Below, one piece after another: positions 32,878 to 35,527 of a stretch of 64,000 bases of DNA (the first letter of the stretch is position 1; each line of letters opens with the position of its first letter). The notes beneath the pieces are model-generated. The model was not told where the DNA came from. It saw only the letters and a list, made by a program, of their open reading frames with translations, and did not search any database. Origin of the DNA: an uncultured Acidobacteriota bacterium (GTDB lineage: Bacteria > Acidobacteriota > Terriglobia > Terriglobales > Acidobacteriaceae). Both the position numbers and the translations under genes were made by a program. The stretch lies in assembly GCA_963763155.1 (NCBI GenBank), contig CAVXNI010000009.1, positions 44,698 to 108,697 on the forward strand, read 5' to 3'.

Positions 32878-34314
32878 TCAGCGGCCCTTGTCGAGTGGCA
32901 AGGTAAATGAGAATACCGAACCGCTGCCCAACTGGCTGACCACGCCGATGGTGCCGCCGTGTGCCTCCACGATCACTTTGGCGATTGCCAGTCCCATGCC
33001 CGTGCCCGGCGCCGTGTATCGCTGGTGCTGGCCGCGATAGAACTTCTCAAAAATCAGCGACTGCTCGAACGAATCGATGCCTGGCCCGCGGTCGGCAACG
33101 CTGGTCACCAGCCACTCGCCCTTCACCTCGCTGGTTACTTTAATCGGAACTCCCGCGTCGGAATATTTGCCCGCGTTCTCCACCAAGTGCATGAGTACTT
33201 CGCGAATCCGCTGCACATCCATGCGCACTTTCGGCAAGTCCGGCGGCACCACGATTTCCATTGGATGTTTCTCCGTCGAAGCCTTGGCGTCTTCCAGGGC
33301 TGGCTGCAGAGCGTCTTGGATCACATGCGGCTGCAGATCGAGTTTGAACATCCCGGAATCGAGTTGCGCCATCTCCGCGGCCTCGCCCACCAGGCGGTTC
33401 AGGCGGTCGGTTTCCTCGTCAATCACTGTCAGCAATTCGCGCCGGCCCTGGTCGTCGAGACTCGCGCCCGACAACAAAGTCGTGATGCTGGCTTTGATGG
33501 AAGTCAGGGGCGTTCGAAACTCGTGGGTCACCGAATCGAGCAGTGCAGTTCGCAGGCGCTCGTGTTCCTGCTCCGCGCGGTTCTTGCTGAGCGCCTCAAG
33601 CGCGCGGGCGCGCTCGATGGCCAGCCCCGCCAGGCTTCCCAAGGCATCCAGAGTCTCCCGCGAAAGTTCGTATCCGGTCACGCCCAGCGCTCCCACCGTG
33701 CGCATGCCCAGACGCAGAGGCACGTACGACACCCCACCCTGCGTAATAGGTTCCCCGCGCAACAGTGTCGAGCGCAGCACGCTCTCTTCAAACGGCGCAT
33801 CGAGCGACGAACGATAGACCGTGGGATGATCCGCCGCCATCACCACTACGCTGCCCACCGAGAACGTTTCCTGCACGTACTTCGGCAAGGCATTCAGCAG
33901 TTCGAGAACGTTCTCCGACGCCAGCAGCCGCTGGCTCAGTCCGAAGAGTCGCTCCACTTCGCGCCGGCGTTGCTTGGCTCCCTCGGCCTCGCGCCGCGCC
34001 CGTTCCGCCAGGTTGCTGGCCACCAGCGCGGTCACCAGAAAAGCGAACAGTGCCACCCAATTCTGCGGATCGGCAATGGTGAACGTTCCGACCGGAGGCA
34101 GAAAGAAAAAATTGAAAGCCGCCGTGGCGCCCACTGCCATGACCACCGCGTAGCGCAAGCCCCAGTAAGCCGAGGTCAGCAGCACGGTCACCAGGAACAT
34201 CAGCGCCACAGTCGTGTGATTGACGTGCAGCCTGAAATCGATTGCCGTGATCATGCCGATGGCGGCGACCACGAAGAAATAACGTTCGGCCTGCGTTCGA
34301 GCCCCGGCTTTCAC
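32878..34314 (-). CDS. Sensor histidine kinase equivalent to the C-terminal half of KdpD (DUF4118 membrane domain, GAF-like, HisKA, HATPase_c)
   Basis: Probable GTG start at 34314. Four TM helices (ALMFLVTVLLTSAYWG..), DSVTHEFRTPLTSI (H box), ENAGKYS (N box), and DRGPGI / GTGMGLAIAK (G boxes). Confidence 0.8.
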   Translation of the reverse strand: MKAGARTQAERYFFVVAAIGMITAIDFRLHVNHTTVALMFLVTVLLTSAYWGLRYAVVMAVGATAAFNFFFLPPVGTFTIADPQNWVALFAFLVTALVASNLAERARREAEGAKQRRREVERLFGLSQRLLASENVLELLNALPKYVQETFSVGSVVVMAADHPTVYRSSLDAPFEESVLRSTLLRGEPITQGGVSYVPLRLGMRTVGALGVTGYELSRETLDALGSLAGLAIERARALEALSKNRAEQEHERLRTALLDSVTHEFRTPLTSIKASITTLLSGASLDDQGRRELLTVIDEETDRLNRLVGEAAEMAQLDSGMFKLDLQPHVIQDALQPALEDAKASTEKHPMEIVVPPDLPKVRMDVQRIREVLMHLVENAGKYSDAGVPIKVTSEVKGEWLVTSVADRGPGIDSFEQSLIFEKFYRGQHQRYTAPGTGMGLAIAKVIVEAHGGTIGVVSQLGSGSVFSFTLPLDKGR

Positions 34315-34405
34315 ACCCGCATTGTACGATGGACGTGACAATTTCGACGCTGGGAAAGACAATAGCTGCGGACGACCAGGCAATGACCAAGCGGATGACC
34401 AGGCA

Positions 34406-35527
34406 ATGACCAAGACGCCCGAGGAATGGCTCAGCGAAGTTTCGCCGGAAAAGCCGCGGGGAATCTTCAAGCTTTTTCTCGGCTACGCTCCCGGTGTGGG
34501 CAAGACCTACAGCATGCTGAGCGAGGCCATTCGCCGCGCCAGCCGCGGCGAAGATGTTATAGTCGGTGTCGTCGAGAGCCATGGCCGCAAGGCTACCGCG
34601 GAACTCGCCGGCAAACTCGACCGCGTCCCTCCTCGCAAACTCGAGTACAAAGGCACCACATTCGAGGAGATGGACGTCGACGCCATCCTGGCCCGCAAGC
34701 CGGCCGTCGTCGTGATCGATGAACTGGCCCACACCAACATCGAGGGCAGCAAACATGCTAAGCGCTACGAAGACGTCATGGAAATTCTGGAGGCGAAGAT
34801 TGACGTGCTCTCCACCATGAACGTCCAGCACGTCGAGAGCGTTGGCCCGACAGTTCAGCAAATCACCGGCGTGCAGGTTCGCGAAACCGTTCCGGACTGG
34901 GTGATGCAGCGCGTCGACGAAATCGTGCTCGCCGATCTGACGCCGCAGGCTCTGCAGAAGCGCATGGAGCGCGGCGATATTTATCCCGTGGATCGTGCCC
35001 AGCGTGCGCTCTCGCATTTTTTTCGGCCAGGGAACCTCATCGCGTTACGTGAGTTGGCGCTTCGCCAGGTTACGGGAGTTGTCGACCGCAGTCTGGACGC
35101 CTTCCTCGACAAGGACGGTACGCAGCCGGCGCACACCGTGCGCGAGCGCATTGGTGTGTGCGTCAGTTCGAATCCCGCGGCGCAGTATCTGATCGCCCGC
35201 GGTTCCCGCATGGCGCAGGCTATGGGCGGAGAGTTCTATGTCTTCTACGTCGACGTCGGCCGCGATACGAGTCCGGAGGACCAGAAAACTTTGGCGGAGA
35301 ATATTCGCTTTGCTGAGAACCTCGGGGCACGCGTGGTGCGCTGTTCTGGTCGAAGCATCGCCGATGGCGTAGCCCAACTGGTGCGCGAGAACCACATCAC
35401 GCAAGTGATTTTCGGCCGGTCGGCTCGCACCGGCTGGCAGAGATATTTATATCTTTCAGCTATTCAGCGTTTTCTGCGGGACTCACCTTCCGTCGACGTC
35501 CACATCGTGACCCAGGAGGCCCGCTGA
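34406..35527 (+). CDS. kdpD: KdpD N-terminal sensor domain plus USP-like domain, encoded as a stand-alone protein
   Basis: GIFKLFLGYAPGVGKTYSML (Walker A), VVIDELAHTN, VLSTMNVQHVES, then a USP-like C-terminus. The stop overlaps the kdpE start (TGATG). Confidence 0.85.
   Translation: MTKTPEEWLSEVSPEKPRGIFKLFLGYAPGVGKTYSMLSEAIRRASRGEDVIVGVVESHGRKATAELAGKLDRVPPRKLEYKGTTFEEMDVDAILARKPAVVVIDELAHTNIEGSKHAKRYEDVMEILEAKIDVLSTMNVQHVESVGPTVQQITGVQVRETVPDWVMQRVDEIVLADLTPQALQKRMERGDIYPVDRAQRALSHFFRPGNLIALRELALRQVTGVVDRSLDAFLDKDGTQPAHTVRERIGVCVSSNPAAQYLIARGSRMAQAMGGEFYVFYVDVGRDTSPEDQKTLAENIRFAENLGARVVRCSGRSIADGVAQLVRENHITQVIFGRSARTGWQRYLYLSAIQRFLRDSPSVDVHIVTQEAR

Follow-up and report, generated by a model that had tools for sequence, protein, structure and literature searches.

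The window, the whole stretch of 64,000 nucleotides that was analysed, comes from a peat-soil acidobacterium and includes a kdp locus in which the potassium-pump regulator KdpD is encoded by two head-to-head genes. The start codons of the kinase gene and the kdpD-N gene are 91 bp apart (34315–34405), and the kdpFABC genes start about 1 kb downstream of kdpE. The genes of the locus, with the evidence for each, are:

32878–34314, minus strand: histidine-kinase half of KdpD, 478 aa, GTG start (Pfam, NCBIfam, motifs, AF2/Foldseek)
34406–35527, plus strand: KdpD-N/Usp stand-alone protein, soluble, 373 aa (Pfam, NCBIfam, PDB, motifs)
35527–36222, plus strand: kdpE response regulator, 231 aa (Pfam Response_reg and Trans_reg_C)
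37223–37312, plus strand: kdpF, 29 aa (ORF list; kept in 81 loci)
37314–39116, plus strand: kdpA, 600 aa, intact (Pfam KdpA, 787 bits)
39161–41190, plus strand: kdpB, three reading frames in the assembly (tblastn against an intact relative, DNA alignment, motifs)
41210–41782, plus strand: kdpC, with an internal out-of-frame stretch (tblastn, Pfam)

The plus-strand gene of the divergent pair encodes a protein with the KdpD domain PF02702 (301 bits) and a Usp domain (residues 247–368). The Walker A motif is GYAPGVGKT (26–34), of the G-x5-GKT type, and the Walker B motif is VVVIDE (101–106). The transmembrane (TM) and kinase domains are absent, and no hydrophobic segment was found (19-residue hydropathy maximum 0.89). 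PDB matches are 2r8r and 7ji4. The NCBIfam family KdpD_non_kinase (NF038185) is matched over model positions 4–372 of 373 with 384 bits, which does not reach its curated cut-off of 550. This is the only KdpD-N gene in the genome. A regular-expression search of the Usp domain did not find the S. aureus c-di-AMP motif SXS-X20-FTAXY, as defined by Moscoso 2016 (PMC4686210); the region reads RGSR-X8-FYVFY, which is nearer to the E. coli type RXXXR-X8-WXAVY. A diadenylate cyclase is present in the genome.

The minus-strand gene encodes a protein with DUF4118 (residues 12–116, 94 bits), HisKA (255–321) and HATPase_c (366–475) domains in Pfam. Four hydrophobic segments were detected, and the AF2 model presents four helices. 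The H-box HEFRTPL at 264, with the phospho-acceptor His264, and the N, G1 and G2 boxes are present; PDB matches are HK853 and KdpD 6lgq. The best NCBIfam family is KdpD itself, with 202 bits over model positions 406–884 of 895, in one contiguous alignment that includes the linker domain. We conclude that this is a KdpD-type kinase, so the profile searches bear out what the sequence-only reading had said of its kinship. That reading had also assigned a GAF domain between DUF4118 and HisKA. The other three domains stand, while GAF has no Pfam match even at E≤10 and none precomputed in 120 homologues. Residues about 117–240 are only GAF-like, as suggested by the KdpD-model alignment, by the AF2 segment (pLDDT 72–87, a mixed helix/strand fold from a shallow alignment) and by the top Foldseek match of the kinase half, a bacteriophytochrome aligned over 443 columns in a list dominated by DHp/CA matches. 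The AF2 model as a whole was built from 19 sequences at ≥87% identity and has a mean pLDDT of 66, so that its domains are visible and its details unreliable. Close homologues are labelled 'sensor histidine kinase KdpD' by JGI, and the NCBI label for the kinase half is merely 'DUF4118 domain-containing protein'.

The split point is the Usp/TM boundary, and the two halves cover positions 10–375, where the N-terminal alignment ends, and 406–884 of the NCBIfam model of E. coli KdpD. Neither half reaches the cut-off of the full-length KdpD equivalog NF007793 (at least 1123 bits; kinase half 202, N-terminal half 338); for the kinase, a low score is to be expected of half a protein. The stop codon of kdpD-N overlaps the start of kdpE (TGATG, 35525–35529), with AGGAGG 8 nt upstream. 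KdpE is the top NCBIfam match of the 35527–36222 product, yet under the KdpE cut-off. The split, the divergent genes and the coupling of kdpE to the N-terminal half had been described from the letters of this DNA, and both coordinates and content were confirmed by Pfam, NCBIfam and the sequence. Apart from two sub-threshold chance matches, an Rfam scan of 30000–42000 (E≤1) returned a single tRNA, located downstream of kdpC, and no c-di-AMP riboswitch. By eye, the divergent spacer and the region upstream of kdpF showed no convincing shared repeat that could serve as a common KdpE operator.

The comparison of the locus among related genomes, which the sequence-only reading had put forward as a check, showed a conserved layout. 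The kinase on one strand and kdpD-N, kdpE and (kdpFABC) on the other were found in 96 of 99 loci of Candidatus Sulfotelmatobacter and sister genera, a recurrence far beyond chance. These loci come from many independent MAG projects and assemblers, and across relatives with the divergent layout identity falls to 58% for KdpD-N and 45% for the kinase. An 872-aa open frame in one genome (G123) was considered as a fused KdpD and rejected; the kinase is on the opposite strand there too (locus L118). Other Acidobacteriota present different split layouts, for example with the kinase gene and kdpE upstream and kdpD-N after kdpC, and KdpD-N/Usp paralogues are also partnered with unrelated HAMP-PAS kinases. 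Among the split layouts, the divergent one, in which kdpE is coupled to the N-terminal half, is peculiar to the Sulfotelmatobacter family.

Three features lie in or at the divergent spacer:

34321–34326, minus strand: −10-like box TACAAT (ATTGTA on the plus strand), 6 nt ahead of the GTG of the kinase gene (alignments, shuffle test)
34335–34363, plus strand: promoter-like site for kdpD-N, GTGACA, 17 nt, GACAAT (promoter scan, conserved block)
34368–34414, plus strand: strain-variable tandem repeat, 23-bp unit ×2 and 11-bp unit ×3.5 (TRF, sequence, relatives)

Among 87 distinct intergenic sequences, all from related, non-independent genomes, TAnnnT stands 5–8 nt ahead of the kinase start in 80 (shuffles 4%), and [TG]AnnnT stands 5–8 nt ahead of the kdpD-N start in 64 (shuffles 8%). 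A 5-nt deletion within the kinase −10 block in two loci (L086 and L094) argues that this block is non-coding. On the kdpD-N side, the promoter scan gave one site where 0.0 were expected; the block GAAAGACAATAGCTGCG-ATG is conserved among relatives, and in most of them the −10 ends 7 nt ahead of the ATG. In some congeners, inserts separate the two conserved boxes to 150–250 bp. These patterns suggest two back-to-back leaderless promoters, each with its own conserved −10 box 6–8 nt from the start codon, and both mRNAs are probably leaderless in Ca. Sulfotelmatobacter and sister genera. In three Acidobacteria genomes, 10–19% of genes have been predicted to be leaderless. A shared bidirectional promoter, earlier supposed to keep the two halves stoichiometric, finds no support in this form; the alignment shows two separate conserved core promoters, placed beside their own start codons.

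In the window itself, the tandem repeat includes copies of the kdpD-N start-codon region and brings the spacer, otherwise of about 56 bp, to 91 bp. It also makes an 8-codon upstream ORF (34383–34409), whose TGA overlaps the true ATG at 34406. The −10 box is set off from the ATG by about 36–43 nt and this small ORF, and therefore kdpD-N would not be leaderless in this genome. In the spacer of about 56 bp, a gap of 8 nt lies between the −35 of one putative promoter and the −10 of its neighbour. The compact layout might then be a regulatory device and no mere by-product of rearrangement, in which RNA polymerase could not occupy both leaderless promoters simultaneously, synthesis of the kinase and of the serine kinase with KdpE would be mutually exclusive or anticorrelated, and the start-codon repeats would tune the balance. 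If so, the pump-ON histidine kinase would be made in opposition to the serine kinase and KdpE, but we consider this device highly improbable.

Three readings would deny that the locus is a working split KdpD. The minus-strand kinase could be a DUF4118 sensor kinase with no relation to KdpD, simply lying beside a kinase-less KdpD-N/kdpE pair, as its 202 bits are far under the 1123 of the KdpD equivalog and the genome has three further DUF4118 kinases. These three are of NarX/LiaS or PAS type and have no match to the KdpD model, which among the four is matched by the 32878–34314 product only. Moreover, no other kinase gene adjoins kdpE, and synteny is kept down to 45% identity. This reading is very unlikely, and it was rejected on the contiguous KdpD-model alignment and the conserved synteny. 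A local inversion error near 34.3–34.4 kb within a single kdpD would find some sympathy in the single-base indels of neighbouring genes in the assembly, but the comparative data refute it: the divergent layout recurs across projects and assemblers, each gene has its own start codon and conserved promoter boxes, and the JGI and NCBI gene callers report kinases of 476–501 aa in relatives. We regard the chance of such an artefact as negligible. The third reading is decay, with kdpB and kdpC as pseudogenes and the regulators as relics. In kdpB, which has the motifs TGES and DKTGT, the frame is disrupted twice, near 39485 and 40036; in kdpC, the stretch about 41542–41724 reads better in another frame (tblastn identity 84% in frame 1 vs 65% overall in frame 2), to which the Pfam KdpC match is confined. 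The repeat expansion and small upstream ORF ahead of kdpD-N point in the same direction. On the other hand, each kdpB change adds a single G to a GGG run, as consensus errors of long reads typically do, and the genome is only 85% 'complete' despite its 15 contigs, which fits widespread indel errors. In addition, kdpA and kdpE show no disruption, nor does either half of kdpD, and kdpB is intact in close relatives at 98–99% identity. The disruptions may be assembly indel errors, or else they may leave this genome without a functional pump; decay of the whole locus seems improbable.

We propose that the locus probably encodes a KdpD system in two chains, as in the published class 'KdpD domain + Usp domain' plus 'TM + GAF + DHp/CA', with the activities on separate polypeptides and under their own promoters. 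The serine-kinase function and the two-chain class are taken from the literature; the domains, the complementary halves, the motifs, the conserved layout and the conserved promoter-like boxes were observed in this analysis. The membrane kinase (32878–34314) would sense K+ and phosphorylate or dephosphorylate KdpE, which would control kdpFABC transcription. KdpD-N/Usp (34406–35527), an atypical Walker A/B serine kinase, would phosphorylate KdpB in TGES and turn the pump off at ample K+. A further role may be the stabilisation of KdpE~P on DNA, known for the separated E. coli KdpD/1-395; the translational coupling of kdpD-N to kdpE would agree with this. Both KdpD activities would thus be present on separate polypeptides, with no need for reassembly, and each head-to-head gene would have its own conserved core promoter, with a −10 box 6–8 nt from the start codon.

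The main competitor to the two-chain reading is that the halves are obligate partners forming a canonical KdpD by non-covalent reassembly. The N-terminal half would then dock on the cytoplasmic domain of the kinase and be needed for normal kinase/phosphatase switching, and the tight divergent linkage would serve co-expression. The gene adjacency is strictly conserved in the Sulfotelmatobacter family, and a Usp domain without the S. aureus c-di-AMP motif may need another input, possibly the kinase half. This is conceivable, but we hold it to be rather unlikely. As reported by Silberberg et al. 2024 (Nat Commun 15:3223, PMC11018627), KdpD-N alone phosphorylates KdpB Ser162 and shuts KdpB off; as a serine kinase it is autonomous, and in vitro it suffices for catalysis. 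Furthermore, the halves are far apart in the other Acidobacteriota described above, the paralogues pair with unrelated HAMP-PAS kinases, and the two core promoters are separable. The earlier claim of an obligatory interaction in trans is therefore too strong: the E. coli data make an interaction possible, and the autonomy of KdpD-N would make it dispensable.

Beyond correct annotation, the relevance of the locus is small. Loci with a split kdpD are easily misread as broken or novel, due to the DUF4118 label at NCBI and the N-terminal half falling under the NCBIfam cut-off. Under the two-chain reading, the locus would represent a natural and stable separation of the KdpD activities, with the histidine kinase acting on transcription and the serine kinase on pump shut-off, and Acidobacteria could be convenient for studying each of them alone. 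The twin start-proximal −10 boxes predict that both divergent transcripts are leaderless, in a phylum for which hardly any promoter data exist.

Among known systems, the locus is an ordinary case of an already published split KdpD and is not new. Of the 5495 species in Silberberg et al., 140 have the 'KdpD/Usp chain + TM/GAF/DHpCA chain'; within the Acidobacteriota it is the majority form, with 31 of 37 species; the earlier citation of N-terminal-only KdpDs in cyanobacteria and Deinococcus had missed this form. The published class has the same Usp/TM split as the window, with kdpE and kdpFABC present, and the paper treats the two-chain version as two separate activities. In the window were found the KdpD domain with Walker A/B, Usp, 4-TM and DHp/CA domains, KdpE, and the KdpFABC genes. 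By eye, the N-terminal chains of Koribacter versatilis (Q1IUD7), Granulicella and Acidipila, as they appear in that source, are very like the protein of the window. The paper, in the parts consulted, sorts proteins and does not describe gene order; the present description of head-to-head genes, of kdpE coupled to the N-terminal chain and of −10 boxes at both start codons covers the Sulfotelmatobacter family alone.

The kinase-less KdpD/Usp proteins of Deinococcus (D. geothermalis DgKdpD, Q1J2K3) and cyanobacteria are soluble, of about 370 aa, and consist of KdpD-N and Usp, like the protein of the window, which matches NF038185 ('KdpD-like non-kinase potassium sensor') along its whole length at a score below the cut-off of that family. 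According to Silberberg et al., they act as serine kinases on KdpB, and kinase-less versions occur mostly in species also without KdpE. Unlike these systems, the window has a KdpD-type kinase and kdpE adjoining. DgKdpD is stimulated by c-di-AMP, and E. coli KdpFABC can serve as its substrate. Finally, the two chains of the window, read in succession, have the same catalytic motifs and the same domains in the same order, the GAF domain being represented by a GAF-like stretch, as E. coli KdpD, whose N-terminal domain is active when separated. They differ from it in being encoded by two genes on opposite strands, with kdpE after the N-terminal half and not after the kinase, and in the residue after GKT, which is Y in the protein of the window and W39 in E. 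coli.

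The kdp locus of this genome, assigned to Candidatus Sulfotelmatobacter (Acidobacteriota; peat and soil MAGs), presented the following features in the ORF listing, translation and Pfam searches:

32878–34314, minus strand: kinase half of KdpD, GTG start at 34314, 478 aa
34406–35527, plus strand: KdpD-N/Usp protein, ATG start, 373 aa
35527–36222, plus strand: kdpE, Response_reg and Trans_reg_C domains
37223–37312, plus strand: kdpF, downstream of kdpE
3′ of kdpF, plus strand: kdpA (787 bits), kdpB and kdpC

The gene coordinates proposed in the sequence-only reading were borne out, as was the overlap of the KdpD-N stop codon with the kdpE ATG (TGATG), which has an AGGAGG 8 nt upstream. 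The KdpD-N domain is single copy in the genome (5.5 Mb, 15 contigs).

Profile coverage shows the two predicted proteins to be complementary halves of canonical KdpD. The KdpD-N/Usp protein (Pfam KdpD domain, 301 bits, plus Usp) aligns to positions 10–375 of the 895-position E. coli-type NCBIfam model, and the kinase half covers positions 406–884, with KdpD as its best family. The genome encodes four DUF4118 proteins, and the other three, which are NarX/LiaS-type or PAS-type kinases, had no match to the KdpD model; the KdpD relation of the minus-strand kinase is thus upheld. The motif check located Walker A (GYAPGVGKT, G-x5-GKT) and Walker B (VVVIDE) in the N-terminal half, which has no hydrophobic segment, and four hydrophobic segments, the H-box HEFRTPL (His264) and the N, G1 and G2 boxes in the kinase half. 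The kinase had been described as DUF4118-GAF-HisKA-HATPase. Pfam recovered DUF4118 (12–116), HisKA (255–321) and HATPase_c (366–475), but no GAF match even at E≤10. Residues ~117–240 are called GAF-like on weaker grounds, namely a contiguous NCBIfam alignment to the KdpD model, a moderately confident helix/strand domain in the AF2 model (pLDDT 72–87), and a full-length bacteriophytochrome as the top Foldseek match of the kinase.

The split and divergent order proved to be conserved in related genomes. The comparison took in genomes of the same genus, 80 named public contigs and the family's sister genera: of 99 loci, 96 presented kinase(−)/kdpD-N(+)/kdpE(+), and kdpA, kdpB and kdpC came next wherever the flank reached far enough, with identities down to 58% (KdpD-N) and 45% (kinase). 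Many independent projects and assemblers are represented among these loci, which excludes a local assembly inversion error. As the sequence-only reading had argued, this order does not arise from one inversion of a co-linear kdpD-N/HK/kdpE. Four gene orders were found in Acidobacteriota: the divergent arrangement, in most genera of the family; HK-kdpE, then kdpABC, with kdpD-N closing the operon (L127–L131 and L135); kdpABC, kdpD-N, HK and kdpE, all on one strand (L133 and L134); and tandem kdpD-N paralogues (L125 and a sister family). Therefore, the KdpD halves are not always adjacent, and the position of kdpE, after the N-terminal half, is characteristic of the family rather than of the two-chain class. 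The variety of layouts shows that kdpD-N, HK and kdpE have been repeatedly shuffled.

The two tandem KdpD-N/Usp paralogues of L125 and L032–L035 (sister family) have 30–37% and 41–46% identity to the protein studied here, and a divergent kinase is absent within the flanks covered. Another paralogue, with 39–42% identity, lies 3′ of a same-strand (4HB_MCP)-HAMP-PAS-HisKA-HATPase kinase in L119:4983-8083 and L133:5058-8074 and is translationally coupled to it (overlaps of 4 nt and 1 nt); no kdp genes are near the L119 copy. It seems that other sensor kinases, too, have been paired with the serine-kinase module.

The spacer between the divergent starts measures 91 bp, versus a median of 56 bp over 87 distinct spacers. 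It is lengthened by a tandem repeat at 34368–34414 (23 bp ×2, 11 bp ×3.5) that copies the kdpD-N start-codon region and makes an 8-codon upstream ORF (34383–34409), whose TGA overlaps the true kdpD-N ATG. The repeat units are strain-variable, with 0, 1 or other numbers in close relatives. Two blocks are almost unchanged across the spacer alignments. One is TACAAT (34326–34321, minus strand), 6 nt ahead of the kinase GTG; in two relatives 5 nt are deleted within this block, evidence that it is non-coding and that GTG 34314 is the likely true start. The other, on the plus strand, is GTGACA-17 nt-GACAAT (34335–34363); in most relatives the ATG comes 7 nt after it. TAnnnT ending 5–8 nt before the kinase start occurs in 80/87 spacers (4% in shuffles), and a start-proximal −10-like box before kdpD-N in 64/87 (8% in shuffles), counts that express conservation and not independent support, as the spacers are related to one another. 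No conserved Shine-Dalgarno precedes either divergent start in the aligned spacers, in contrast to the AGGAGG of kdpE. The simplest reading is two back-to-back putative promoters giving leaderless mRNAs; leaderless genes are predicted to be 10–19% of genes in three Acidobacteria genomes. A shared bidirectional promoter had been proposed. In several congeners, inverted-repeat-built inserts of 100–200 bp lie between the two promoter cores and leave them undisturbed; therefore, the putative promoters would be separate units and not one shared element. The spacer inserts of the same-genus loci L021–L025 resemble small mobile or hairpin elements; inverted repeats, all short, make them up (GTTTCAAAG/CTTTGAAAC-type or CTCTGTGTCTCTGTG hairpins).

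Downstream, in the kdpB–kdpC region (39161–41782), kdpB falls into three reading frames owing to one additional G in each of two GGG runs (near 39485 and 40036), and an internal kdpC stretch (~41542–41724) matches relatives better in another frame, beside intact kdpA, kdpE and kdpD halves. These disruptions are probably long-read consensus indel errors, because marker completeness is only 85% despite 15 contigs. In the 1-kb kdpE–kdpF gap lies an 85-aa ORF (36405–36662) with no Pfam match, whose conservation extends to 62 loci of the genus (54–89% identity). Just 5′ of kdpF, a 28-codon hydrophobic peptide ORF (37097–37183), conserved by tblastn in 80 loci and reaching distant Acidobacteriota families at 39–50% identity, probably represents a genuine second small Kdp-associated membrane peptide.

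According to Silberberg et al. 2024 (PMC11018627), the N-terminal KdpD domain phosphorylates KdpB Ser162, inactivating the pump at high K+, and the isolated domain is enough in vitro. The claim that the halves must interact in trans is accordingly relaxed: physical interaction is possible, and the split can now be explained without it. Transcription of kdpFABC would be under the control of the membrane kinase together with KdpE, and the soluble KdpD-N/Usp protein would inhibit KdpB post-translationally. A second possible role of the latter is to stabilise KdpE~P on DNA, an activity that the separated E. coli N-terminal domain has; such a role would account for the coupling to kdpE. A diadenylate cyclase gene is present in the genome (G000:C3:669377-669727; DAC domain, 138 bits), which would make c-di-AMP signalling available to this acidobacterium. 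No riboswitch is present at the locus.

The Usp domain looks like the E. coli type, unlike that of S. aureus, whose c-di-AMP motif SXS-X20-FTAXY it lacks. In Supplementary Data 2 of Silberberg et al. 2024 (PMC11018627), the class with a KdpD/Usp chain and a TM/GAF/DHpCA chain comprises 140 species and 31/37 Acidobacteriota; the split itself is therefore the catalogued majority state in the phylum. In the 301 Acidobacteriota genomes drawn, counting by hand gave ~111 strong KdpD-domain matches, in open frames of <480 aa (roughly 50), 540–600 aa (9) and >800 aa (~51). By eye, the N-terminal chains of Koribacter versatilis (Q1IUD7), Granulicella and Acidipila in the Silberberg list are very like the KdpD-N/Usp protein described here. 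The locus thus adds one more member to this published class; its gene order is specific to the family, and the promoters predicted here can be tested.
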